Source: a virus (Duplodnaviria; Heunggongvirae; Uroviricota; Caudoviricetes). Taken from it: 25,037 nucleotides of DNA. Of this stretch, positions 7,080-19,418 are shown one piece after another. Made by a program: the position numbers and the translations under genes. The notes below the pieces were generated by a model, which was not told the DNA's origin, searched no databases, and saw nothing but the letters and a program-made list of their open reading frames with translations. The first letter of the stretch is position 1. Each line of letters opens with the position of its first letter. The stretch is taken from positions 1 through 25,037 of IMG/VR virus record IMGVR_UViG_3300045988_138129; one strand, given 5' to 3'.

Positions 7080-8153
7080 TTACTTTCCATTTTTTAATGA
7101 ATTGATTAACGATGCTATTTGCTCAATGCCATCAAATGTAGATGGTATCTTATCATCGGATAGCATGATGTTTGAAAATACTACGTCTTCGAATTTTGAA
7201 AGCGCTTCCGGATTGTTTTTCCTTATCTCTGAGGAATAGTCGCTATAACTCTGAATGAACTGACAAAGGCTCTTTCTGAGTTCTATTTGCATAATCTGAG
7301 TTCGTAACGATATATGATTTAGCAGTACAACTCTAAAGTAATACATGAAAATCAATGTAACTGATGCAAAAGGTAGTGCTGACATAAAATATGTGGCAGC
7401 ATTTGTCGTTTCGAGAGCTGGTAATTTATGCATTCCATAGTATATCAGCGGGGAGGGAATGATTATAGCCAAGATGATAAGAGTTATTCTTGATAGCATG
7501 ATTTCACTTTCTTTCTTTTTGCCAAGTGAATTAAAGCCTTCAAACAATCCAACAAAATTAAATGCGACCTCATACCCTTTTAATGACTCTTTGATTGACT
7601 CTATTTTGGCATGTTGCTCCTTTAAGAAGGAGTCGCACTTTTCGAAAAATTGACGCCCTTCGTTTAAACTATCAATGTATTTTTTATATGTGTCAACATT
7701 GCTGGAGCTTAAAACTTCTTTAACCATTGCTAATGGCAGTTCTCTAAGAGAAAAGTCTATCTGTGCTCTGCTCCGCTCATCGAATTCATTATAGTTATAC
7801 AGAGCAAAATCCTTGATGGTTCTTAGTGGTGAAAAGTGAGACTCTATTTCCGGAGAGAGAATGCTTGGTTCAATGATAAATCTAAAAAAGCAAGTGAATA
7901 TAAGGTTGATGCTGTTGTTATCTTCTCCCTTTTCTCTTAAGAAACTTTTAAAGGTGTCGCCAATCATAGCAATGTTGTACTGGGATTTTTTGTCCCAATC
8001 TTCAGGGTTTTCGGAAATGAAGTTTATTGCTTGAGCAATTATTTTGTTTCTGCTTGATTCAAAGTTTGTGCCGGGAGTCAGCGTGTTCAAAAAGACCAGA
8101 TAATCTTTGAACAATTCTTTCATTGTTTCTGACGAGAAAAAGTAAGTACTCAT
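7080..8153 (-). CDS. Hypothetical two-TM membrane protein in the S-V accessory position; candidate abortive-infection or defense protein
   Basis: Uninterrupted minus-strand ORF, AT-rich by eye. Soluble N-terminal ~240 aa, two hydrophobic helices (LSRITLIILAIIIPSPLIYYG; AATYFMSALPFASVTLIFMYYFRVVLL), C-terminal ~85 aa tail. ATG at 8153 (MSTYFF...) gives 358 aa and avoids overlapping V; alternative starts are GTG at 8249 (389 aa, overlaps V) and ATG at 8123. Confidence 0.75.
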   Translation of the reverse strand: MSTYFFSSETMKELFKDYLVFLNTLTPGTNFESSRNKIIAQAINFISENPEDWDKKSQYNIAMIGDTFKSFLREKGEDNNSINLIFTCFFRFIIEPSILSPEIESHFSPLRTIKDFALYNYNEFDERSRAQIDFSLRELPLAMVKEVLSSSNVDTYKKYIDSLNEGRQFFEKCDSFLKEQHAKIESIKESLKGYEVAFNFVGLFEGFNSLGKKKESEIMLSRITLIILAIIIPSPLIYYGMHKLPALETTNAATYFMSALPFASVTLIFMYYFRVVLLNHISLRTQIMQIELRKSLCQFIQSYSDYSSEIRKNNPEALSKFEDVVFSNIMLSDDKIPSTFDGIEQIASLINSLKNGK

Positions 8154-8239
8154 AATGGATTTTGTTGTCCCTTGTTGTTCTGTGCACCAGAAATCGTGGT
8201 GTGATTTACTTCGAGATTGTACAGAATCATTATTATCGA
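8154..8239. promoter_or_regulatory. Divergent intergenic region, expected site of the V late promoter and of the cargo-gene promoter
   Basis: 86-bp gap between the cargo-gene start (8153, minus) and the V start (8240, plus), containing TTGTTGT...TTGTTCTGT elements. Called from position only. Confidence 0.3.
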
Positions 8240-8869
8240 ATGAATGCACAATACAATGAAATTCTTCGCTTTATACGCAATATGATTCGCACTGGCATTA
8301 TCGTCGAAACCGACCTTAATGCCGGTCGCTGCCGTGTGCAGACCGGCGGCATGTGCACCGACTGGCTTCAGTGGCTGACCCATCGCGCCGGTCGTTCGCG
8401 CACATGGTGGGCACCTTCCGTGGGGGAACAGGTGCTGATTCTGGCCGTGGGCGGTGAACTCGACACGGCGTTCGTTCTGCCGGGGATTTATTCCGGCGAT
8501 AACCCCGCGCCGTCGGCGTCGGCGGATGCCCTGCATATCCGTTTCCCTGACGGGGCGGTGATTGAGTATGAACCTGAAACCAGTGCACTCACGGTAAGCG
8601 GAATTAAAACGGCCAGCGTGACGGCTTCTGATTCTGTTACTGCCACGGTGCCGGTGGTCATGGTGAAAGCATCAACCCGCGTCACCCTGGACACACCGGA
8701 GGTGGTCTGCACCAACAAGCTGATTACCGGCACGCTGGAAGTGCAGAAGGGCGGGACGATGCGCGGCAACATTGAACACACCGGCGGTGAACTTTCATCA
8801 AACGGGAAGGTACTGCATACCCATAAACACCCCGGCGACAGCGGCGGCACAACCGGGAGTCCTCTATGA
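8240..8869 (+). CDS. V: Baseplate spike / assembly protein gpV
   Basis: MNAQYNEILRFIRNMIRTGIIVETDLNAGRCRVQTGGMCTDWLQWLTHRAGRSRTWWAPSVGEQ... matches P2 gpV. The ORF-track start at 8162 is an upstream extension. Confidence 0.93.
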   Translation: MNAQYNEILRFIRNMIRTGIIVETDLNAGRCRVQTGGMCTDWLQWLTHRAGRSRTWWAPSVGEQVLILAVGGELDTAFVLPGIYSGDNPAPSASADALHIRFPDGAVIEYEPETSALTVSGIKTASVTASDSVTATVPVVMVKASTRVTLDTPEVVCTNKLITGTLEVQKGGTMRGNIEHTGGELSSNGKVLHTHKHPGDSGGTTGSPL

Positions 8870-9217: not shown

Positions 9218-10126
9218 ATGCCGATTATCGACCTGAACCAGCTACCCGCACCGGATGTGGTCGAGGAGCTGGACTTTGAAACCATTCTTGCCGAACGCAA
9301 GGCGACACTGATTTCCCTTTACCCGGAAGACCAGCAGGAGGCGGTCGCCCGTACCCTGACGCTTGAATCTGAGCCTCTCGTCAAACTGCTGGAGGAAAAT
9401 GCTTATCGTGAGCTTATCTGGCGTCAGCGTGTGAATGAGGCCGCACGGGCGGTGATGCTGGCCTGTGCTGCCGGTAATGACCTTGATGTGATTGGTGCCA
9501 ATTACAACACCGCGCGCCTGATTATCACCCCGGCAGATGATTCGACCCTCCCGCCGACACCGGCCGAGATGGAATCTGACACCGATTATCGTCTGCGTAT
9601 TCAGCAGGCGTTTGAAGGTTTAAGCGTCGCCGGGTCGGTGGGGGCCTATCAGTATCATGGTCGAAGTGCCGACGGGCGTGTCGCAGATATCTCTGTCACC
9701 AGTCCTTCTCCGGCCTGCGTCACCATCTCTGTGCTGTCACGTGAAAATAACGGTGTCGCATCCGAAGACCTGCTGGCGGTGGTGCGTAACGCCCTTAATG
9801 GCGAGGACGTCAGGCCGGTAGCCGACCGCGTGACCGTGCAGTCTGCCGCCATCGTTGAATACCAGATAAACGCCACGCTTTACCTTTACCCTGGTCCCGA
9901 AAGCGAACCCATCCGCGCTGCCGCCGTGAAAAAACTGGAAGCGTACATCACGGCACAGCACCGGCTGGGGCGCGACATCCGTCTGTCTGCCATTTATGCC
10001 GCTTTGCATGTGGAAGGCGTGCAGCGTGTCGAACTGGCTGCACCACTGGCCGACATTGTGCTCAACAGTACGCAGGCGTCTTTCTGTACCGAATACCGCG
10101 TCGTGACCGGAGGCTCGGATGAGTGA
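9218..10126 (+). CDS. J: Baseplate assembly protein gpJ
   Basis: 302 aa, MPIIDLNQLPAPDVVEELDFETILAERKATLISLYPEDQQEAV...; P2 gpJ position and sequence. Confidence 0.93.
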   Translation: MPIIDLNQLPAPDVVEELDFETILAERKATLISLYPEDQQEAVARTLTLESEPLVKLLEENAYRELIWRQRVNEAARAVMLACAAGNDLDVIGANYNTARLIITPADDSTLPPTPAEMESDTDYRLRIQQAFEGLSVAGSVGAYQYHGRSADGRVADISVTSPSPACVTISVLSRENNGVASEDLLAVVRNALNGEDVRPVADRVTVQSAAIVEYQINATLYLYPGPESEPIRAAAVKKLEAYITAQHRLGRDIRLSAIYAALHVEGVQRVELAAPLADIVLNSTQASFCTEYRVVTGGSDE

Positions 10127-10659: not shown

Positions 10660-12750
10660 ATGAGCACAAAATTCAAAACCGTTATCACCACTGCCGGTGC
10701 AGCAAAGCTGGCAGCGGCAACCGCACCGGGAGGGCGGAAGGTCAACATTACCACGATGGCCGTCGGGGATGGCGGTGGTAAATTGCCTGTCCCGGATGCC
10801 GGACAGACCGGGCTTATCCATGAAGTCTGGCGACATGCGCTGAACAAAATCAGCCAGGACAAACGAAACAGTAATTATATTATCGCAGAGCTGGTTATTC
10901 CGCCGGAGGTGGGCGGTTTCTGGATGCGTGAACTTGGCCTGTACGATGATGCGGGAACGCTAATTGCCGTGGCGAACATGGCCGAAAGTTATAAGCCAGC
11001 CCTTGCCGAAGGCTCAGGGCGTTCGCAGACCTGCCGCATGGTCATCATCGTCAGCAGTGTGGCCTCAGTGGAGCTGACCATTGACACCACAACGGTGATG
11101 GCAACGCAGGATTACGTTGATGACAAAATTGCAGAACATGAACAGTCACGACGTCACCCTGACGCCTCGCTGACCGCAAAAGGTTTTACTCAGTTAAGCA
11201 GTGCGACCAACAGCACGTCTGAAACACTGGCTGCAACTCCGAAAGCGGTTAAGGCCGCATATGACCTTGCTAACGGGAAATATACCGCACAGGACGCTAC
11301 CACCGCGCGAAAAGGCCTTGTTCAGCTCAGTAGTGCGACTAACAGCACGTCTGAAACGCTCGCCGCAACGCCGAAAGCGGTAAAGGCAGCATATGACCTT
11401 GCTAACGGGAAATACACTGCACAGGATGCCACAACAGCGCGAAAAGGCCTTGTTCAGCTCAGTAGCGCCACCAACAGCGATTCTGAAACGCTTGCGGCAA
11501 CGCCAAAGGCGGTTAAGACAGCATATGACCTTGCTAACGGGAAATACACTGCACAGGATGCCACCACGGCGCGAAAAGGTCTTGTCCAGCTCAGTAGCGC
11601 CACCAACAGTGATTCTGAAACGCAGGCTGCAACGCCAAAGGCGGTGAAGTCTGCCTATGACAATGCTGAAAAACGTCTTCAGAAAGATCAGAACGGTGCG
11701 GATATTCCGGGAAAGGATACCTTCACGAAAAATATCGGTGCCTGTCGTGCTTATAGCGGCGCTTTGAGCACTGAAGCCGGAAACTGGACAACCGCTCAGT
11801 TTATTGAATGGCTGGATTCCCGTGGTGCATTTAATCATCCGTACTGGATGTGCAAAGGCTCCTGGTCATATGCAAATAACAAAATCATTACGGATACTGG
11901 CTGTGGCAATATTCATCTTGCTGGCGCTGTTATTGAGGTAATGGGCATAAAGTCTGCAATGACTATTCGTATTACCACACCAACAACATCAAGCGGTGGG
12001 GGCACTACAAGCGCGCAATTTACTTATATTAACCACGGGGACAACTATGCTCCTGGCTGGCGGCGTGACTGGAACCGTTACGGCGATTCTATGTCTGGAA
12101 CTATTAATCAGGATAGTGGAAGCCAGAATGCCTATATGTCTACGGCCTTATGTTCCGGCACCAGAGGCGGCAAAAAATATCTCAGAAAGTTTCGTGGTGG
12201 AGAAGGAGACACTATCTGGCATGAAACAGTACAGGGCGGGGTAATTCGCTGGGCGACAGGTAATACTGATGCTCAGGAAGAATTATCACTCAGCTCTGCT
12301 TATGGTCTTCGTTCAAGAGGTGAAATTACATCGCTCAGTGCTAATGGTCTGCGCATTGCTTATGGCAATTATGGATTCTTTATCAGGAATGATGGCGGCA
12401 GCACATATTTAATGCTGACGGCCTCTGGCGATAAATTTGGAACATGGAACGGTTTAAGACCGCTGACTATCAATAACGCCAATGGCGGAGTGTCAATGGG
12501 GCATGGCCTGAGTGTTACTGGACGTGTTAACCCATCAGATTACGGAAATTTTGATTCCCGCTATGTGAAAGATGTTCGCCTGGGTACGCGTGTTGTTCAG
12601 ACCATGCAAAAAGGCGTGATGTATGAGAAATCAGGCCATGTAATTACAGGGCTTGGCATTGTCGGCGAAGTTGATGGCGATGATCCGGCAGTATTCAGAC
12701 CAATACAAAAATACATTAATGGCACATGGTATAACGTCGCACAGGTGTAA
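10660..12750 (+). CDS. H: Tail fiber protein gpH, with an internal tandem-repeat shaft segment
   Basis: 696 aa; N-terminus MSTKFKTVITTAGAAKLAAATAPGGRKVNITTMAVGDGGG... is the conserved P2-type fiber anchor. The C-terminal third is AT-richer and likely the host-range-determining region. Confidence 0.92.
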   Translation: MSTKFKTVITTAGAAKLAAATAPGGRKVNITTMAVGDGGGKLPVPDAGQTGLIHEVWRHALNKISQDKRNSNYIIAELVIPPEVGGFWMRELGLYDDAGTLIAVANMAESYKPALAEGSGRSQTCRMVIIVSSVASVELTIDTTTVMATQDYVDDKIAEHEQSRRHPDASLTAKGFTQLSSATNSTSETLAATPKAVKAAYDLANGKYTAQDATTARKGLVQLSSATNSTSETLAATPKAVKAAYDLANGKYTAQDATTARKGLVQLSSATNSDSETLAATPKAVKTAYDLANGKYTAQDATTARKGLVQLSSATNSDSETQAATPKAVKSAYDNAEKRLQKDQNGADIPGKDTFTKNIGACRAYSGALSTEAGNWTTAQFIEWLDSRGAFNHPYWMCKGSWSYANNKIITDTGCGNIHLAGAVIEVMGIKSAMTIRITTPTTSSGGGTTSAQFTYINHGDNYAPGWRRDWNRYGDSMSGTINQDSGSQNAYMSTALCSGTRGGKKYLRKFRGGEGDTIWHETVQGGVIRWATGNTDAQEELSLSSAYGLRSRGEITSLSANGLRIAYGNYGFFIRNDGGSTYLMLTASGDKFGTWNGLRPLTINNANGGVSMGHGLSVTGRVNPSDYGNFDSRYVKDVRLGTRVVQTMQKGVMYEKSGHVITGLGIVGEVDGDDPAVFRPIQKYINGTWYNVAQV
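11185..11658 (+). repeat. In-frame tandem repeat inside H, ~3.6 copies of a 132-bp (44-aa) unit
   Basis: Unit boundaries at 11185, 11317, 11449 and 11581. Encoded unit (F/L)(T/V)QLSSATNS(T/D)SETLAATPKAVKAAYDLANGKYTAQDATTARKG. Minus-strand ORF 11194..11838 and short plus ORFs here are repeat-generated shadows. Confidence 0.9.
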
Positions 12751-12753
12751 TTT

Positions 12754-13281
12754 ATGCAGCATTTAAAAAATATTACTGCGGGTAATCCCAAAACTGTTGC
12801 CCAATATCAACTGACAAAAAATTTTGATGTTATCTGGTTATGGTCTGAAGACGGAAAAAACTGGTATGAGGAAGTAAGTAATTTTCAGGAAGACACGATA
12901 AAGATTGTTTACGACGAGAATAATATAATTGTCGGCATCACCAGAGATGCTTCAACGCTTAACCCTGAAGGTTTTAGCGTTGTCGAGGTTCCTGATATTA
13001 CCGCCAACCGACGTGCTGATGACTCAGGTAAATGGATGTTTAAGGATGGTGCCGTGATTAAGCGGATTTATACGGCAGACGAACAGCAGCAACTGGCAGA
13101 ATCACAAAAGGCAACTTTACTTTCCGAAGCTGAATCCGTGATTTTGCCGCTGGAGCGCGCTGTCAGGCTGAATATGGCAACAGATGAGGAGCGCAGCCGA
13201 CTGGAAGCATGGGAACGCTACAGCGTTCTGGTCAGTCGTGTGGATCCTGCAAATCCTGAATGGCCGGAAATGCCGCAATAA
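12754..13281 (+). CDS. G: Tail fiber assembly chaperone gpG
   Basis: 175 aa, [41 protein letters not shown]...; Tfa-type fiber assembly protein immediately after H. Confidence 0.9.
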
Positions 13282-13326
13282 GTTGTATGAGCTGACATAC
13301 CTATAGCACAGAGTAAAGTCTAATCT

Positions 13327-13355
13327 GACAGTCCGCTCTGTGCCAAGAGCAGACG
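13327..13355. repeat. Near-palindromic site A (GACAGTCCGCT-ctgtgccaag-AGCAGAC), left boundary of the transporter cassette
   Basis: 7-bp arms GTCCGCT / AGCAGAC with one central mismatch, 10-nt core. Related to sites B (17003) and C (18008). Lies in the 315-bp gap between G and the BetT-like gene. Confidence 0.6.
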
Positions 13356-13596
13356 CTGGTAATTCGTGCCTAATATACTTCACTTAACTTATATCCCAGC
13401 TTTGATACAGATCATACAAATTAAATGCCCCAGTAATTGGCAGGCTGAGTAACTTAAAACTCCTTAGAATATAGGATGATTTGTATCGGCACTCATTCCA
13501 CCATGCATTCCGATTAATCCCGCATAGCCAGTTGAACTTTGCTACTCTGTGAGAGGTAGTACCTTCTATCCAGTGCGGATTTAATTAATGGAATAA

Positions 13597-15600
13597 ATGA
13601 TTATGAGTGAAAATGATACAACCCCAAAGAAGTCTACAAGCCAGGTTAACAAAGCGGTATTCTTTACATCTGCTTTGCTAATTTTCCTTCTTGTCGCCTT
13701 TGCCGCCGTATTCCCGGATGTCGCCGACAAAAATTTTAAACTACTTCAGCAACAAATCTTCACGAATGCCAGCTGGTTCTACATACTTGCTGTGGCCCTG
13801 ATTTTACTGAGCGTCACGTTCCTTGGACTCTCACGTTACGGTGATATAAAGCTGGGCCCAGACCATGCGCAGCCTGATTTCAGCTACCACTCCTGGTTCG
13901 CGATGCTTTTTTCGGCAGGGATGGGGATCGGCCTGATGTTCTTTGGCGTTGCCGAACCTGTGATGCATTATCTTTCGCCACCTGTCGGCACTCCAGAGAC
14001 CGTTGCGGCAGCGAAGGAAGCCATGCGCCTGACGTTCTTCCACTGGGGTCTGCACGCATGGGCAATTTATGCCATCGTGGCGCTGATTCTGGCCTTTTTC
14101 AGTTACCGTCACGGTCTGCCTTTAACGCTGCGTTCTGCGCTCTATCCCATTATCGGCGATCGCATTTACGGGCCTATAGGCCACGCGGTTGATATCTTCG
14201 CCGTGATAGGCACTGTCTTTGGCGTTGCAACATCGCTGGGTTACGGTGTATTGCAGGTGAATGCCGGTTTGAACCATCTTTTCGGCGTGCCCATCAATGA
14301 AACGGTACAGGTCATTTTGATCGTGGTCATCACGGGGTTAGCGACGATTTCGGTGGTGTCCGGCCTGGACAAGGGAATACGCATCCTGTCTGAGCTTAAT
14401 CTGGGCCTGGCGGTGTTGCTCCTGGCGCTGGTCTTGTGCCTGGGTCCCACTGTGCTTCTGCTGAAGTCATTTGTGGAAAATACGGGTGGTTATCTGTCGG
14501 AACTGGTGAGTAAAACGTTCAACCTTTACGCGTATGAACCCAAGTCGAGCAACTGGCTGGGGGGCTGGACATTATTATACTGGGGATGGTGGCTTTCATG
14601 GTCGCCGTTTGTAGGTATGTTCATTGCACGCGTTTCCCGCGGCAGGACAATTCGTGAGTTCGTGACTGGCGTGTTGTTTGTTCCCGCCGGCTTTACGCTC
14701 ATGTGGATGACGGTGTTTGGAAACAGCGCCATCTATCTCATCATGAACCAGGGCGCCACTGACCTCGCCAATACCGTTCAGCAGGATGTTGCGCTTGCCC
14801 TGTTTAATTTCCTGGAGCATTTCCCGTTCTCTTCCGTGCTGTCATTCATTGCAATGGCGATGGTCATCGTCTTCTTTGTAACGTCTGCTGATTCGGGGGC
14901 AATGGTTGTGGATACTCTGGCATCAGGTGGGGTGGCAAACACGCCCGTCTGGCAGCGAATTTTCTGGGCATTGCTCATGGGCGTTGTTGCTATTGCCCTG
15001 CTGATCGCAGGGGGGCTGAGTGCGTTGCAAACCGTAACGATAGCGAGTGCATTGCCCTTCTCAGTTATCTTATTAATATCCATATACGGACTGTTAAAAG
15101 CCCTGCGTCGGGATTTGACCAAGCGTGAAAGCCTTAGCATGGCGACTATTGCTCCTACGGCTGCACGTAACCCAATTCCTTGGCAGAGAAGGTTACGCAA
15201 TATCGCGTATTTGCCGAAGCGCTCTCTTGTGAAACGTTTTATGGACGACATTATCCAACCCGCCATGACGCTGGTTCAGGAGGAACTTAACAAGCAGGGA
15301 ACGATAAGCCACATCAGTGACGCCGCCGAGGATCGTATTCGCCTTGAAGTCGATTTGGGCAACGAGCTGAATTATATATATGAAGTGAGGCTTCGCGGGT
15401 ATAACTCACCGACCTTCGCGCTCGCTGCGCTGGATAATGATGAGCAGCAGAGTGAACAACATCGATATTATCGCGCTGAAGTCTATCTCAAAGAGGGCGG
15501 CCAAAATTATGATGTAATGGGCTGGAATCAGGAACAGCTGATTAATGACATACTGGACCAGTACGAAAAACACCTGCACTTCCTGCATCTGGTTCGTTAA
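13597..15600 (+). CDS. BCCT-family transporter, BetT-like (choline/betaine-type), full length with long C-terminal cytoplasmic domain
   Basis: 667 aa, ~12 hydrophobic helices. BCCT signature GWTLLYWGWWLSWSPFVGMFIARVSRGRTIREF. Conserved blocks resembling BetT at both ends (YGDIKLGP...AMLFSAGMGIGLMFFGVAEPV; QEQLINDILDQYEKHLHFLHL). Alternative start ATG at 13603. Confidence 0.85.
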   Translation: MIMSENDTTPKKSTSQVNKAVFFTSALLIFLLVAFAAVFPDVADKNFKLLQQQIFTNASWFYILAVALILLSVTFLGLSRYGDIKLGPDHAQPDFSYHSWFAMLFSAGMGIGLMFFGVAEPVMHYLSPPVGTPETVAAAKEAMRLTFFHWGLHAWAIYAIVALILAFFSYRHGLPLTLRSALYPIIGDRIYGPIGHAVDIFAVIGTVFGVATSLGYGVLQVNAGLNHLFGVPINETVQVILIVVITGLATISVVSGLDKGIRILSELNLGLAVLLLALVLCLGPTVLLLKSFVENTGGYLSELVSKTFNLYAYEPKSSNWLGGWTLLYWGWWLSWSPFVGMFIARVSRGRTIREFVTGVLFVPAGFTLMWMTVFGNSAIYLIMNQGATDLANTVQQDVALALFNFLEHFPFSSVLSFIAMAMVIVFFVTSADSGAMVVDTLASGGVANTPVWQRIFWALLMGVVAIALLIAGGLSALQTVTIASALPFSVILLISIYGLLKALRRDLTKRESLSMATIAPTAARNPIPWQRRLRNIAYLPKRSLVKRFMDDIIQPAMTLVQEELNKQGTISHISDAAEDRIRLEVDLGNELNYIYEVRLRGYNSPTFALAALDNDEQQSEQHRYYRAEVYLKEGGQNYDVMGWNQEQLINDILDQYEKHLHFLHLVR

Positions 15601-15607
15601 CAGCAAC

Positions 15608-15636
15608 ATGCCGCCACAGAGGCGGCATTTATTTAT
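15608..15636 (+). terminator. Rho-independent terminator after the BetT-like gene
   Basis: ATGCCGCC-acag-GGCGGCAT hairpin followed by TTATTTAT, 8 nt after the stop at 15600. Confidence 0.75.
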
Positions 15637-15663
15637 CCCGGCTGCAATATGAGGGAATGCAGA

Positions 15664-16941
15664 ATGATTTCACGCTGGAAATGGATGCTGAAGCAGACAT
15701 TTAAAAAACTATGGTTCAGGGCAACGTTATTCGCAATTGTCGCAATAATAACGGCCCTTTTATCAATTCTTTTTAAATCAATGATACCTGAGTCGGTTTC
15801 CGTGAAGGTTGGTGCGGAAGCAGTCGATAACATTCTGAACATACTGGCATCGAGTATGCTGGCAGTGACCACATTTTCGCTGAGCATCATGGTCACAGCC
15901 TACGGTTCAGCCACTACTAATGTGACTCCCAGAGCTACTCGTTTAGTTGTTGAAGACGTCACCACACAAAATGTACTGGCCACCTTCATCGGTTCTTTTC
16001 TCTTCAGTCTGGTAGGGATTATTGCCCTCAATATGGGAGCTTATGGAGAAAGGGGGAGAGTCATTTTATTCATTGTAACACTGGTTGTCATTGCCTTAAT
16101 CCTCATCACATTGCTTCGCTGGATACAGCATTTGACCTCTCTGGGGAGGGTTGGTGAGACAACGGCAAAAGTAGAACAGGCGGCCATCGAAACATTTATT
16201 GCGAGAGCAAGAAATCCCTGTCTCGGCGGATATCCATGGCTTGAGAACAATGAACAGCCGAAAGGAACGGTTGCAGTTTATCCGAAAAAGATTGGCTATG
16301 TTGAATATGTTGATATGGTGAAACTCAGCAAGCTGCTGACCAATGATCCCCGTCATGTATACCTCGTGGCGCAGCCGGGCAGTTTCATACATCCGTCCAC
16401 GCCAGTTTTGTACCTGAGTCAGGGCCAGGAGTCATCAATCAGCACCGATTTACTTGAGACGATTATTGTCTCGGATGTACGTTCATTTGCTCAGGACCCC
16501 CGATTTTGTCTTAGCGTCATGGCCGAAATAGCCTGCCGAGCCCTTTCCCCCGCAGTGAACGATCCTGGAACCGCCATTGATGTCATTGGCAGAGGTGTAC
16601 GTATACTTTCCGCTTACGCGCAGAATAAATCTGATGAAATAGAAGTGAAATATCCTTCTGTACATGTTGCACCACTTCAGAATAACGATCTACTTGAAGA
16701 CTTTTTCTCACCTGTTGCGCGCGATGGTGCCAGTATGAGGGAAATTCAGATAAGGGTCCTTAAAGGACTGTCGATGCTGAGTAAGGGTTGGCCTGGAATT
16801 TTTGCTGAAGCCGCACAAACCCTAGCATTTGAAACATTAGAGCATGCTACTCGTGCTGACCATATAGATTCTGACAGATATCTAATAAAATCAATTTATT
16901 ATAATTTATTTAGTGGCGAAGATTCTAATAAAAAACCATAG
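15664..16941 (+). CDS. Membrane protein with four N-terminal TM helices and a large cytoplasmic domain; DUF2254-like (family assignment from memory, uncertain)
   Basis: GAGGG RBS before the ATG at 15664 (MISRWKWMLKQ...); the ORF-track start at 15649 is less likely. Four hydrophobic helices in the first ~160 aa. Conserved-looking block SFAQDPRFCLSVMAEIACRALSPAVNDPGTAIDVIGRG. Confidence 0.75.
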   Translation: MISRWKWMLKQTFKKLWFRATLFAIVAIITALLSILFKSMIPESVSVKVGAEAVDNILNILASSMLAVTTFSLSIMVTAYGSATTNVTPRATRLVVEDVTTQNVLATFIGSFLFSLVGIIALNMGAYGERGRVILFIVTLVVIALILITLLRWIQHLTSLGRVGETTAKVEQAAIETFIARARNPCLGGYPWLENNEQPKGTVAVYPKKIGYVEYVDMVKLSKLLTNDPRHVYLVAQPGSFIHPSTPVLYLSQGQESSISTDLLETIIVSDVRSFAQDPRFCLSVMAEIACRALSPAVNDPGTAIDVIGRGVRILSAYAQNKSDEIEVKYPSVHVAPLQNNDLLEDFFSPVARDGASMREIQIRVLKGLSMLSKGWPGIFAEAAQTLAFETLEHATRADHIDSDRYLIKSIYYNLFSGEDSNKKP

Positions 16942-17002
16942 TTGCGGAGCAAGCGATACGGTTGTTGGCAAGTCAAGGGCAAAGCATTCGCGTGAGAGTG
17001 GG

Positions 17003-17027
17003 CGTCTGCTTTGTGCCAACAGCGGAC
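17003..17027. repeat. Near-palindromic site B (GTCTGCT-ttgtgccaac-AGCGGAC), between the convergent DUF2254-like and HNH genes
   Basis: Core 8/10 identical to site A in direct orientation. Its arms are the reciprocal variants of site A's arms (A: GTCCGCT/AGCAGAC; B: GTCTGCT/AGCGGAC). Confidence 0.6.
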
Positions 17028-17081
17028 ATTATAGATGGTATATGTAGAAAGTGAACATGCGTAGATTGTATGATTTAGCCG

Positions 17082-17891
17082 TCACTTAATTATTGGATAA
17101 CTCACACAAGTATGACCGTTGCTTATCGCATACATTTGGTTTCCCTTAAGATTTACAAATGGAAATGTCGTATACTCATAATTTATAGAGGTCATATTAA
17201 ATGTAAGGAATTTATCTTCAAGTTCTAATTTTGTAGAGTGGGCAGGGTATGTTCCTTCATTTCTCATTGTGATAATAAAACCGATAGGAAAAAAATGTAA
17301 AGCACAAATAAATGCCACATGTCCTTCGTTCATAAATGCTACACTTTGAGCGGATATGTGCATTCTGTGTGGGTAAAACCAGTAGTAAATATCATGAGTT
17401 TCCTCAAAACTTGAATTTTTACCCAAAACATAATCCTTTAAAGGTGTATAGAAGGGGCTATCTACGGGTTCTTTTTTACAATCTTCAACTGAAGTTGCTG
17501 ATAGCACGTGCCCAATCATAGCCTTAGTGAAAGATATGCTATCAAAAGGTATTCTAATGAATGGATATACATTCATACCATTCATATATCGACTTAACTG
17601 TTCTTTAAAGGACTTTGTTACATTTTCAATTGCAACATCGAGCCCACCTAATACCTTATTGTTACAGTGGCTGCAAATGGTTCTGAAATAAGAGCCATTT
17701 TTAGCATTTAATGGTTTAACTGGTTCCTGAATACCAAAAAATTCGCTAACTGTTTTCTGCAAAACAGGGCCTAAGGTTATGGCGCACTTTGGAGGAACAT
17801 GATCTTTTGTGAGCAAGCCATATTTCCCACAAATATTGCAATAACCTTCAGTAATGCCATTGTGCTTCCATCGTTCACTAATTTTCGTCAT
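17082..17891 (-). CDS. HNH endonuclease-domain protein (N-terminal HNH motif, C-terminal domain of unknown function)
   Basis: 269 aa, AT-rich, GAGGGA RBS before the ATG at 17891. Motif C-N-I-C-G-x9-D-H-V-P-P-K ... N-x12-C-S-H-C-N-N-K fits the CxxC...(D/H)H..P...N...CxxC(N)xK HNH zinc-finger nuclease pattern. Confidence 0.78.
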   Translation of the reverse strand: MTKISERWKHNGITEGYCNICGKYGLLTKDHVPPKCAITLGPVLQKTVSEFFGIQEPVKPLNAKNGSYFRTICSHCNNKVLGGLDVAIENVTKSFKEQLSRYMNGMNVYPFIRIPFDSISFTKAMIGHVLSATSVEDCKKEPVDSPFYTPLKDYVLGKNSSFEETHDIYYWFYPHRMHISAQSVAFMNEGHVAFICALHFFPIGFIITMRNEGTYPAHSTKLELEDKFLTFNMTSINYEYTTFPFVNLKGNQMYAISNGHTCVSYPIIK

Positions 17892-18007
17892 TTTTATTCC
17901 CTCAGTAGCATAAGCTATCTATACGTTTTTTAATCCTATCAAAGATACAACTTAACGTCAGGAAAATGATAGTGTTTATCTAAGTAATACAATTAACTTC
18001 AACGCGT

Positions 18008-18039
18008 GACAGTCTGCTTTTCGCTCAAAGCAGACTGTC
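18008..18039. repeat. Perfect palindrome site C (GACAGTCTGCTTT-tcgctc-AAAGCAGACTGTC) upstream of the HNH gene
   Basis: 13-bp perfect inverted arms around a 6-nt centre. The arms share the GACAGTC(T/C)GCT...AGCAGAC sequence with sites A and B. No T-run follows, so it is not a classic terminator; it could be a recombination site or operator. Confidence 0.65.
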
Positions 18040-18103
18040 AGATTTGATAGCGTTTTGGCTATGTAAATTGTCAGTCGGAAAATGAGTGAGTACAAACTAG
18101 GAC

Positions 18104-18128
18104 AGGCGGGCGAATTGCCCGCCTTTTC
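18104..18128 (+). terminator. Rho-independent terminator (plus orientation) just upstream of the FI promoter region
   Basis: AGGCGGGC-gaatt-GCCCGCCT hairpin followed by TTTTCT. Confidence 0.7.
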
Positions 18129-18227: not shown

Positions 18228-19418
18228 ATGAGTGACTATCATCACGGCGTGCAGGTGCTGGAGATTAACGACGGCACCCGCGTCATTTCAACCGTATCCA
18301 CCGCCATTGTCGGCATGGTCTGCACGGCCAGCGATGCGGATGCGGAAACCTTCCCCCTCAATAAACCGGTGCTGATTACCAATGTGCAGAGCGCAATTGC
18401 AAAGGCCGGTAAAAAAGGCACGCTGGCGGCATCGTTGCAGGCCATCGCTGACCAGTCAAAACCGGTCACCGTTGTTGTGCGCGTGGAAGACGGCACCGGC
18501 GACGACGAAGAAACGAAACTCGCGCAGACCGTTTCCAATATCATCGGCACCACCGACGAAAACGGTCAGTACACCGGACTGAAAGCCCTGCTGGCGGCGG
18601 AGTCGGTAACCGGTGTTAAACCGCGTATTCTCGGCGTACCGGGACTGGATACCAAAGAGGTGGCTGTTGCACTGGCATCAGTCTGTCAGAAGTTGCGCGC
18701 TTTCGGGTATATCAGCGCATGGGGCTGTAAAACCATTTCCGAGGTGAAAGCTTACCGCCAGAATTTCAGCCAGCGTGAGCTGATGGTCATCTGGCCGGAT
18801 TTCCTCGCATGGGATACGGTCACCAGTACCACCGCCACCGCGTATGCTACCGCCCGTGCGCTGGGTCTGCGTGCCAAAATCGACCAGGAGCAGGGCTGGC
18901 ATAAAACGCTGTCCAACGTCGGGGTGAACGGTGTTACCGGCATCAGCGCATCTGTATTCTGGGATTTGCAGGAGTCCGGCACCGATGCTGACCTGCTTAA
19001 CGAGTCAGGCGTCACAACACTGATTCGCCGTGACGGTTTCCGCTTCTGGGGTAACCGTACCTGCTCTGATGACCCGCTGTTCCTCTTTGAAAACTACACC
19101 CGCACCGCACAGGTACTGGCCGACACGATGGCTGAGGCGCACATGTGGGCGGTGGACAAGCCCATCACCGCAACGCTGATTCGTGACATCGTTGACGGCA
19201 TCAATGCCAAATTCCGTGAGCTGAAAACAAACGGCTATATCGTGGATGCGACCTGCTGGTTTAGCGAAGAATCCAACGATGCGGAAACCCTCAAGGCCGG
19301 AAAACTGTATATCGACTACGACTATACCCCGGTGCCTCCTCTTGAAAACCTGACCCTGCGCCAGCGTATCACCGATAAATACCTGGCAAATCTGGTCACC
19401 TCGGTTAACAGCAATTAA
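18228..19418 (+). CDS. FI: Tail sheath protein gpFI
   Basis: 396 aa, MSDYHHGVQVLEINDGTRVISTVSTAIVGMVCTASDADAETFPLNKPVLITNVQ...; contractile tail sheath of P2 type. Confidence 0.95.
   Translation: MSDYHHGVQVLEINDGTRVISTVSTAIVGMVCTASDADAETFPLNKPVLITNVQSAIAKAGKKGTLAASLQAIADQSKPVTVVVRVEDGTGDDEETKLAQTVSNIIGTTDENGQYTGLKALLAAESVTGVKPRILGVPGLDTKEVAVALASVCQKLRAFGYISAWGCKTISEVKAYRQNFSQRELMVIWPDFLAWDTVTSTTATAYATARALGLRAKIDQEQGWHKTLSNVGVNGVTGISASVFWDLQESGTDADLLNESGVTTLIRRDGFRFWGNRTCSDDPLFLFENYTRTAQVLADTMAEAHMWAVDKPITATLIRDIVDGINAKFRELKTNGYIVDATCWFSEESNDAETLKAGKLYIDYDYTPVPPLENLTLRQRITDKYLANLVTSVNSN

Follow-up and report, generated by a model that had tools for sequence, protein, structure and literature searches.

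Putative tyrosine-recombinase sites appear to divide P2-like prophage cargo into exchangeable cassettes

Accessory and anti-phage genes have a major reservoir in P2-like prophages, whose hotspots change content so quickly that different cargo may be carried by phages with identical cores. How is cargo replaced at such a locus? According to a 2026 survey, recombination at P2/P4 defence hotspots is a process that "still needs to be elucidated", and a 2022 study offered speculation about cos ends only. In outline, a site-specific answer has already been put forward for the tail-gene hotspot, where a review credits Nilsson, Karlsson and Haggard-Ljungquist (2004, Mol Biol Evol, doi 10.1093/molbev/msg223) with inverted repeats and site-specific exchange at Z/fun of P2-like coliphages. 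Compared through that review's summary, those repeats share with the sites described here both the locus between G and FI and the underlying idea, whereas the present island (BCCT/DUF2254 and a 269-aa gene as cargo, with an A-A-C architecture) is a different instance. The 25,037-nucleotide stretch of viral DNA analysed here (herein referred to as the window) offers a specific, testable mechanism for the tail-gene hotspot at base-pair resolution.

Gene order and Pfam matches place three near-palindromic sites, A, B and C, in the G-FI ("Z/fun") cargo hotspot of a P2-like Escherichia coli prophage, a position likewise occupied in 10 phage isolates and 117 contigs of viral origin. The initial annotation had read the three as related sites with hybrid junctions; all were found at the positions it gave, with the reciprocal arm variants it described (C/A in A, T/G in B), and its interpretation is supported as largely right. 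The features of the island are as follows.

12754..13281, + strand: P2 gene G (tail fibre assembly), the final backbone gene ahead of the hotspot (Pfam Caudo_TAP, 9e-35; related-phage annotation).
13331..13354, + strand: site A (A-type), GTCCGCTCT-GTGCCA-AGAGCAGAC; left arm GTCCGCTCT at 13331-13339 (part of the phage backbone), centre GTGCCA at 13340-13345, right arm AGAGCAGAC at 13346-13354 (part of cassette 1).
13346..17018, + strand: cassette 1, with a BCCT transporter (13597-15600; Pfam BCCT, 3e-199), its own terminator (15608-15628) and a DUF2254 membrane protein (15649-16941; Pfam DUF2254, 2e-92).
17004..17027, + strand: site B (A-type), GTCTGCTTT-GTGCCA-ACAGCGGAC; left arm GTCTGCTTT at 17004-17012 (part of cassette 1), centre GTGCCA at 17013-17018, right arm ACAGCGGAC at 17019-17027 (part of cassette 2).
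17019..18026, - strand: cassette 2, with a 269-aa gene (17082-17891, - strand; phrog_21495).
18012..18035, + strand: site C (C-type), GTCTGCTTT-TCGCTC-AAAGCAGAC; left arm GTCTGCTTT at 18012-18020 (part of cassette 2), centre TCGCTC at 18021-18026, right arm AAAGCAGAC at 18027-18035 (part of the phage backbone).
18104..18124, + strand: intrinsic terminator of the backbone, upstream of the FI promoter region and outside the putative recombination sites (9-bp stem with 7 GC pairs, then TTTTCT; kept in all related phages).
18228..19418, + strand: P2 gene FI (tail sheath), the initial backbone gene past the hotspot (Pfam Phage_sheath_1 and Phage_sheath_1C).

GC content falls to 0.35 at 17001-18000 of the window, and A, B and C lie between G and FI around foreign, low-GC cargo, as the flanking repeats of P2 Z/fun do. 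None of the four island genes has a PADLOC match to a defence system. The gene between B and C had been labelled HNH, a label that finds no support, as it has no HNH match in Pfam or NCBIfam and belongs to a PHROG family without known function.

Each site is 24 bp long, with 9-bp inverted arms (GTCYGCTYY and RRAGCRGAC) on either side of a 6-bp centre. The motif GTCYGCT-N10-AGCRGAC, allowing at most one mismatch, occurs at exactly A, B and C on both strands of the 25 kb (expected number 0.03), and none of 100 shuffles reached three matches. The centres GTGCCA and TCGCTC are both non-palindromic, and the 9-6-9 layout recurs in dozens of related sites; inverted arms around an asymmetric centre of 6-8 bp are the anatomy of core-type tyrosine-recombinase sites. 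Site C is the perfect palindrome that had been claimed, with extended arms of 14 bp (18007-18040) rather than 13; it had also been grouped with A and B as one kind of site, but because its centre, TCGCTC, differs from GTGCCA, we assign it to a second, putatively non-cross-reacting class. From these patterns we consider it likely that A, B and C are core-type tyrosine-recombinase sites that cut the P2 cargo island into exchangeable cassettes. The asymmetric centre would be the crossover region and the two arms would bind the recombinase, with GTGCCA (A-type) and TCGCTC (C-type) defining two classes within which alone exchange would occur.

Junctions in related phages, plasmids and chromosomes bear directly on this reading. 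The initial annotation proposed that a crossover in a 10-nt core left A and B as hybrids, and pro147, a related phage in which the 269-aa gene is the sole cargo of the hotspot, does hold the single unrecombined site: its one site, GTCCGCTCTGTGCCAAGAGCGGACattatagatggt, combines A's left half with the right half of B and its flank. We place the exchange point in the 6-bp centre of a 9-6-9 site rather than in a 10-nt core. Where pro147 and the window region align, they are 92.5% identical, and we therefore attribute to divergence a G/C difference between their copies at position 17 of the 269-aa cassette boundary. Cassette 1 is 99.9% identical on plasmids of E. coli, Shigella, Klebsiella and Enterobacter, including conjugative ones, where the matches start at window positions 13328/13331 and end at 17029/17030, that is, at A and B; on plasmids and chromosomes alike it is a discrete unit ending there, as expected of the ~3.65 kb transporter/DUF2254 segment that A and B had been said to flank. 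Both cassettes recur on plasmids and chromosomes between the sites that bound them in the window, so that, as with the Z/fun repeats, the same repeats surround the same genes in bacterial genomes.

In plasmid arrays, cassette 1 lies alongside the 269-aa gene and a gene for a 200-aa tyrosine recombinase (int), with cassette order permuted between plasmids. The 269-aa gene is a separate unit in two different positions there, which, with its solitary state in pro147, agrees with the earlier suggestion of a second module. Array L011 differs from arrays L012 and L014 in that the 269-aa and 476-aa cassettes have traded places around the recombinase gene with strands unchanged, and each of the four junctions is an exact reciprocal recombinant whose partner changes at GTGCCA or TCGCTC with no bases gained or lost; the 476/int and int/269 junctions were predicted beforehand and then matched on reading. 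The halves of all three sites change partners: the right half and flank of A occur on plasmids behind other left halves, the left half of B is followed in L012 and L014 by a different right half, three different left partners in total precede the right half of B (left halves from the int cassette or the P2 backbone, seen in L012, L014 and pro147), and the left half of C has four right partners, three of them, besides that of the window, on plasmids and a chromosome. Every switch lies within 6-7 bp, left and right halves reassorting together with their flanks at unchanged length, and in about a dozen junctions compared the breakpoints lie exactly in the 6-bp centre irrespective of flanking homology, the pattern of conservative exchange confined to a central region. 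Nearly all full sites in three chromosomal arrays share one orientation.

The same boundaries recur across P2-like hotspots. In 117 of them, backbone homology stops within the left site and restarts within the right site, as the earlier proposal on cargo boundaries anticipated. The left half of site A is near-invariant in this set (the search pattern itself fixed part of it, through GTGC), and the right half goes with the cargo: after two positions that vary comes AGCGGAC, which is conserved (0.7-0.99), and past it the sequences are unrelated. The right boundary mirrors this pattern, the right half and flank of site C being conserved in 79 hotspots behind unrelated left flanks. These 79 loci, in which both boundaries were found, hold 36 cargo clusters; every classifiable site in their cargo lies in one orientation, and none of the 79 is empty. 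P2 and Wphi have decayed A-type and C-type sites at the same locus. In these alignments, the sites follow cargo boundaries and are not a general host repeat.

Which enzyme acts on the sites? The initial annotation saw no recombinase gene in the window, and indeed none related to the 200-aa protein of the plasmid arrays is present there. On sequence grounds, the absent enzyme is probably this 200-aa, catalytic-domain-only tyrosine recombinase, itself a cassette in related arrays, which would carry out conservative site-specific recombination in trans. The protein matches PF00589 at 1e-17 with the R..HxxR..H..Y residues visible. Its gene occupies a C-to-A slot in related arrays on plasmids, genomic islands and a lambdoid prophage, with GTCYGCTYY and a C-type centre upstream and an A-type centre and RRAGCGGAC downstream (in Enterobacterales and several more distant loci). 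Half-sites flank the gene at 41% and 36% of 76 loci, compared with 10% and 8% of control windows. Against this assignment, the cassette's own arms are poor consensus matches, and below about 65% recombinase identity many loci have no half-sites recognisable under the strict motif. In favour of availability in trans, the recombinase is carried by 885 of 5426 E. coli genomes (16% of complete genomes); the source strain, S10, was not among the records with the recombinase at ≥99% identity. In phage YpM_22 and locus L166 a 5' stub of the recombinase cassette is fused to P2 backbone, so that the cassette was evidently once present in a P2 hotspot.

It is improbable, but the best of the alternatives, that the sites are genuine and another enzyme (host XerC/XerD, the P2 integrase or a further recombinase) acts on them, with the 200-aa protein as a passenger cassette. 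A site-linked recombinase was seen at none of the 128 P2-like hotspot loci examined, the 200-aa protein has no N-terminal DNA-binding domain, and pdif modules are a precedent in which host Xer proteins are able to move plasmid modules. The sites, however, do not look like Xer targets: the dif pattern (GGTGCGCATAA-TGTATA-TTATGTTAAAT, 11-6-11) has no match at ≤3 mismatches, and arms and centres are by inspection unrelated to it. Acinetobacter plasmid pdif modules resemble the present cassettes as gene modules bounded by short tyrosine-recombinase core sites in varied plasmid contexts, but their sites are 11-6-11, dif-like, of alternating orientation and served by host XerC/XerD, whereas those here are 9-6-9, of unrelated sequence, oriented alike throughout and associated with a small recombinase of their own. 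Against a passenger role, the recombinase gene keeps its C-to-A slot, and the spacing of the half-sites is fixed, in Enterobacterales as well as in several genera more distant than these, and full sites are enriched more than 20-fold around its homologues (46 in 1.07 Mb, compared with 0-2 in shuffles).

A somewhat weaker alternative, which we regard as quite unlikely, is that the palindromes are conserved backbone or regulatory hairpins (terminators or RNA-stability elements), that cargo turns over by homologous recombination in G and FI and that the hybrid look is incidental. Both genes are strongly conserved among P2 relatives, so flanking homology is available and homologous recombination in them could be an alternative route of exchange among these relatives; site C, moreover, folds strongly (-14.5 kcal/mol, z = -5.4). 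Sites A and B, in contrast, fold weakly (z = -0.7 to -1.6, no better than shuffles), A, B and C have no T tract and are not among the predicted terminator-like sites of the window, and the real terminators lie at 15608-15628 and 18104-18124. Nor does backbone homology account for cargo-side arms conserved past two variable positions, and on plasmids and islands without G/FI homology the same sites bound the same cassettes, in permuted order.

Integrons offer a further comparison. They share with the present system arrays of promoter-poor cargo cassettes with short imperfect palindromes between them, a tyrosine recombinase and the occurrence of site arrays that lack it. Unlike attC sites (RYYYAAC ... 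GTTRRRY), which recombine as folded single strands and conserve structure rather than sequence, the arms here are sequence-conserved (GTCYGCT/AGCRGAC) and have no GTTRRRY. IntI, of about 320-340 aa with an extra domain, lies outside the array beside attI and the cassette promoter, whereas the recombinase here has 200 aa, lies inside the array as a unit (12.5 bits against the NCBIfam integron-integrase model, cut-off 435) and goes with two centre classes. That the sites work as folded single-stranded hairpins (attC-like or HUH/IS200-type targets) on strands from P2 rolling-circle replication is very improbable: they are palindromic, P2 does replicate by rolling circle and the arrays look like integron cassette arrays, but arm sequence beyond mere pairing is conserved across unrelated cassettes, A and B fold poorly and have mismatched arms, neither R''/R' boxes nor an IntI or HUH gene is linked to the sites, and each partner gives a whole half-site around a shared centre, as is typical of duplex core sites.

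Returning to duplex exchange by the 200-aa recombinase, we hypothesize that the backbone gives an A-type left half after gene G and a C-type right half before FI, everything between being cargo. A pro147-like phage with the 269-aa cassette alone would have gained the transporter/DUF2254 cassette by circle integration, or by cointegrate resolution, at its A-type site, leaving hybrid sites A and B in direct orientation. With two incompatible centres, the hotspot would behave as a natural cassette-exchange dock. A close analogy is engineered heterospecific lox/FRT cassette exchange, in which two sites with the same arms and incompatible spacers surround the cargo, which, because the spacers are incompatible, can be swapped between replicons but not deleted; the absence of empty loci among the 79 hotspots is consistent with cargo not being lost. 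The lox/FRT systems are man-made and use Cre or Flp, whereas the natural equivalent proposed here is deduced from junction patterns only.

Literature searches for the recombinase protein accessions, or for any published cassette system of this kind with a tyrosine recombinase, returned nothing relevant. More tentatively, with an expectation slightly short of even, we propose that the P2 tail-gene hotspot is one dock of a widespread, not-yet-described cassette-exchange system, integron-like but mechanistically distinct. Cargo units would be bounded by one A-type and one C-type site, and the complementary C-to-A slot would hold the minimal 200-aa recombinase (at least 60% identity across alpha-, beta- and gamma-proteobacteria), or alternatively an 18-bp linker or a whole phage backbone; through the incompatible crossover regions, cargo would be swapped among phages, plasmids and islands and never simply lost. 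Such a system, if real, would be the hotspot recombination process that recent P2/P4 studies leave unsolved. The same cassettes between the same sites on conjugative plasmids suggest how phages and plasmids trade accessory genes, and confirmation would explain how cargo moves among phages, plasmids and islands without common flanking homology, why it is replaced rather than lost, and how tandem cassettes originate; A-type and C-type sites together would then be a sequence signature for cargo cassettes that needs no knowledge of function.

Two further families bear comparison. FimB/FimE invertases are likewise about 200 aa, essentially the catalytic domain alone, and act at 9-bp inverted repeats, but they invert a promoter segment, whereas direct-repeat sites here delimit cassettes; NCBIfam matches of the 200-aa protein to FimB/FimE-type models are weak (25.5 and 18.1 bits; family cut-offs about 220). 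The sfx repeat consensus of the IncI shufflon, GTGCCAATCCGGTNNGTGGA, starts with GTGCCA(A), as in the A-type centre, and sfx repeats have one arm conserved and the other not, resembling the recombinase cassette's own junctions. Shufflon inversions lie within pilV, its recombinase, Rci, is about 384 aa, and its arm sequences differ from those here; because only 26 Escherichia plasmid records match the 200-aa protein at E ≤ 1e-20, Rci seems not to be a close relative. We treat this resemblance as a lead, not a finding.

A synthetic query for the circle or tandem junction of cassette 1 gave no exact match. All that it retrieved, in about 100 genomes, was a remnant of the 3' end of the cassette, diverged and lying upstream of the 5' site, which is suggestive of such a junction but not decisive.

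The window spans the late genes of a P2-like E. coli prophage (Peduovirus), with capsid, lysis, tail completion, baseplate, tail fibre H and G genes followed by an island, the sheath gene FI and onward; across the island it matches E. coli strain S10 at 100% identity. The island lies between G and FI, where phage P2 carries Z/fun, and comprises a transporter cassette and a 269-aa gene bounded by three near-palindromic sites, each composed of 9-bp inverted arms (GTCYGCTYY / RRAGCRGAC) around a 6-bp centre (A-type, GTGCCA, in sites A and B; C-type, TCGCTC, in site C).

Genes and sites of the G-FI island and its borders
10660-12750, tail fibre H
12754-13281, tail fibre assembly G
13331-13354, site A, GTCCGCTCT GTGCCA AGAGCAGAC
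13597-15600, BCCT transporter (island)
15649-16941, DUF2254 membrane protein (island)
17004-17027, site B, GTCTGCTTT GTGCCA ACAGCGGAC
17082-17891, minus strand, 269-aa gene of unknown function (island)
18012-18035, site C, GTCTGCTTT TCGCTC AAAGCAGAC; perfect arms reach 14 bp
18228-19418, sheath FI

The pattern GTCYGCT-N10-AGCRGAC, with at most one mismatch, occurs three times in the window (A, B and C only) against 0.03 expected; the sites lie exactly where the initial annotation had placed them, and the reciprocal arm variants that it described (C/A and T/G) are real. Its HNH label for the 269-aa gene did not hold, as no HNH or other significant domain match was obtained. The pro147 phage copy of this gene carries the RefSeq name putative metal-binding domain protein, and in E. 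coli ATCC 25922 an 810-bp minus-strand gene, matched to it by length alone, is flanked by two C-type sites rather than by an A-type and a C-type site. The backbone half-sites at 13319-13339 and 18027-18047 are inverted copies of one another over at least 19 nt (TCTAATCTGACAGTCCGCT vs AGCAGACTGTCAGATTTGA), as though cargo had split a single long ancestral palindrome.

If A and B are hybrid junctions flanking the transporter segment, as was initially proposed, a phage without that segment is predicted to retain an unrecombined parental site. We fetched the same region from ten isolated P2-like phages; in pro147, where the 269-aa gene is the only cargo, the single site after G, ctaatctgacaGTCCGCTCTGTGCCAAGAGCGGACattatagatggt, is the predicted one: through the centre it follows A and its left flank, and from the right arm outward it follows B and its right flank. 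Entry of the transporter cassette at the A-type site of a phage resembling pro147 would have given rise to A and B, and A×B recombination would excise the cassette again, yielding a circle with the expected junction ...GGGCGTCTGCTTTGTGCCAAGAGCAGACGCTGG... Among complete E. coli genomes the pro147-type junction is present in 21 and the window-type junction (P2 backbone and transporter cassette) in 4, and insertion into the P2 backbone is therefore rare; because the cassette is near-identical to plasmid copies, it is also probably recent. Site C is missing from pro147 (L001, around 2100), in which a 78-bp stretch is deleted between two GATAGYGTTT direct repeats; these lie at 17968-17977 and 18046-18055 in the window, and deletion between them takes out the whole C-type site.

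The 3.65-kb transporter segment recurs, 99.9% identical, on many conjugative plasmids (E. coli, Shigella, Klebsiella, Enterobacter) and on chromosomes, with matches that begin at window position 13328/13331 and stop at 17029/17030, the edges of A and B, bearing out its description as a discrete unit. On these replicons it shares an array with the window's own 269-aa gene and with two further units, a 476-aa gene and a 200-aa "site-specific integrase". Between plasmid L011 and two other array loci (L012 and L014), the 269-aa and 476-aa units are swapped around the integrase gene with the strand of every gene kept. Each arrangement has four junctions, and the two sets are exact reciprocal recombinants of each other: left flank and left arm travel together, as do right arm and right flank, and partners switch at GTGCCA or TCGCTC with zero bases gained or lost. 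Two of the L012 junctions were predicted from L011 beforehand, and both are present. In the window, pro147 and three further loci taken together, four different right partners follow the left half of C and three different left partners precede the right half of B; the switch falls at the centre every time, and exchange was observed only between sites with the same centre. Judged from these sequences, the junction pattern is the signature of conservative site-specific recombination with a putative 6-bp overlap region. The initial recombination reading of the sites is confirmed in its observation and supported in its interpretation, which can be sharpened to two centre classes with the 6-bp centre as switch point. 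Homologous recombination in G and FI surely contributes to cargo exchange among P2 relatives, but it cannot account for either the same junctions on plasmids and islands or the permuted arrays.

When viral contigs were scanned with the left site's backbone half, 118 loci matched, 117 of them with enough flank to profile. The left site is ~99% conserved from the backbone flank through the left arm and centre, the stretch through GTGC being fixed by the search pattern; beyond the centre lie two variable positions (0.4-0.6), a conserved cargo-side AGCGGAC (0.7-0.99) and then background level. The right site has the mirror profile, with unrelated flank, conserved cargo-side GTCCGCTYY (0.4-0.9; at least 0.6 at 6/9 positions), TCGCTC and backbone. 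Because the search pattern did not include the cargo-side arms and the cargo of the 79 loci that have both boundaries falls into 36 unrelated clusters, this conservation indicates that selection acts on the arm itself. Of the architectures that could be recognised, A...C is present at 39 loci, A only at 25 and A-A-C, the window's type, at 5; in the 79 hotspots every classifiable site points the same way, and none of the 79 is empty, the shortest being 846 nt. In phage 899 a C-type site, 18 nt and an A-type site lie between two cargo genes, and such a doublet (with a spacer of ~18 nt) recurs in many arrays. Complete doublets are present at 2848-2913 of locus L008 and also in L015, L018, L019, L020, L021, L213, L214 and L215, filling the slot held by the recombinase gene in other arrays. 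The window also contains a second low-GC island (7080-8249, minus strand; GC 0.33-0.36) with a 389-aa ORF between the tail-completion and baseplate genes that had no match in Pfam and PADLOC searches and belongs to phrog_9373, of unknown function; since neither an A-type nor a C-type site lies on its flanks, the mechanism of this hotspot appears to differ from that at G-FI.

The candidate enzyme for the sites is the 200-aa array protein (WP_001752951.1, WP_001305361.1), a tyrosine recombinase consisting essentially of the catalytic domain only (PF00589 at 1e-17, with R..HxxR..H..Y visible), which reaches no family-level cut-off in NCBIfam and whose sole solved relative is XerD (E about 1e-3). 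It is encoded in 885/5426 complete E. coli genomes and, in the contexts examined (CP4-like islands, a lambdoid prophage and plasmids), is each time embedded in an array of A-type and C-type sites, of which nearly all point the same way as the gene. More than 546 relatives occur in alpha-, beta- and gamma-proteobacteria (with at least 60% identity for the best 80). Both in Enterobacterales and at several more distant loci, GTCYGCTYY and a C-type centre lie upstream of the gene, and a hairpin, an A-type centre and RRAGCGGAC downstream; in more distant genera the centres beside it are GGGTCG and CGGCCA. Full sites around recombinase genes number 46 in 1.07 Mb (0-2 in shuffles), and half-sites adjoin the gene at 41% and 36% of 76 loci, compared with 10% and 8% of control windows. 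Neither the window nor any of the 128 P2-like hotspots searched has the gene; a 5' stub of its cassette is joined to the backbone terminator in Yersinia phage YpM_22 and one viral contig. At these loci (L010 2476-2600 and L166 around 2055, respectively), a C-type site is followed by the recombinase upstream hairpin, the first ~20 nt of the coding sequence and, fused to these without a gap, the P2 backbone terminator, a relic of a recombinase cassette formerly in a P2 hotspot.

It is possible that a different, unlinked recombinase acts on the sites. Integron-type single-strand recombination does not fit, as the arms are conserved in sequence and the recombinase family differs. Nor can A and B be explained as terminators or RNA hairpins, given that they fold weakly, without a T tract, and are not called terminators, the true terminators lying elsewhere (15608-15628 and 18104-18124). 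Xer recombination was dropped because a search for dif-like sequence found none.

Immediately ahead of the start codon of each recombinase gene, the Shine-Dalgarno GGAG is base-paired in a hairpin with a CTCC that lies upstream of it (L011 10713-10750, with equivalents in loci L015-L060; such as CTCAAATCTCC...GGAGATTTGAG and GTCCTCC...GGAGGAC). Its pairing is preserved through compensatory changes across genera and hence suggests translational occlusion of read-through transcripts.

We propose that the small recombinase would bind the arms and exchange strands across the 6-bp centre, that two same-class sites in direct orientation would release a circle and that this circle could enter any site of the same class. 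Because the P2 backbone flanks its cargo with sites of different class, one A-type and one C-type, this cargo would be replaceable but not removable by A×C recombination, with replacement proceeding by integration at one site and deletion at the other, via C-linker-A intermediates like that of phage 899. Such cassette exchange agrees with the absence of empty hotspots here and with the rapid swapping without pseudogenes published for P2/P4 hotspots. A review attributes flanking inverted repeats and site-specific exchange at the Z/fun locus to Nilsson et al. (2004), and on that attribution the initial idea is a rediscovery in outline; this kind of site was already known at the G-FI locus, and the window adds a new example whose cargo differs. 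Neither of two recent large studies of P2/P4 hotspots makes use of flanking-repeat exchange, one speculating on cos ends and the other listing transposition, homologous and illegitimate recombination for a process that "still needs to be elucidated". In the open-access literature that we searched, neither the 9-6-9 anatomy nor the two centre classes were described, nor were the arrays or the small recombinase in the C-to-A slot, and the wider system to which the window points may be undescribed and is directly testable. The start of the shufflon repeat GTGCCAATCCGGTNNGTGGA matches the A-type centre, a feature common to both that we treat as a lead only.

A BCCT/DUF2254 variant of 94% identity is frequent in E. 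coli, with more than 1,000 chromosomal records, and the Klebsiella-rich plasmid matches fall mainly into a 90-95% identity class. In the copy examined, on the E. coli 200164 chromosome (L013), the 94% variant is surrounded by IS elements in the vicinity of lpxM/virK, and at its end is a decayed site, GTATGCTTTGTGCCAAAAGCAAAC (9510-9533). On the E. coli WP8-S18-CRE-02 chromosome (L216 6940-7035), as in about 100 genomes, a diverged remnant of the transporter cassette 3' end sits directly upstream of the A-type site that starts the cassette, an arrangement that a former tandem or circle junction would leave.
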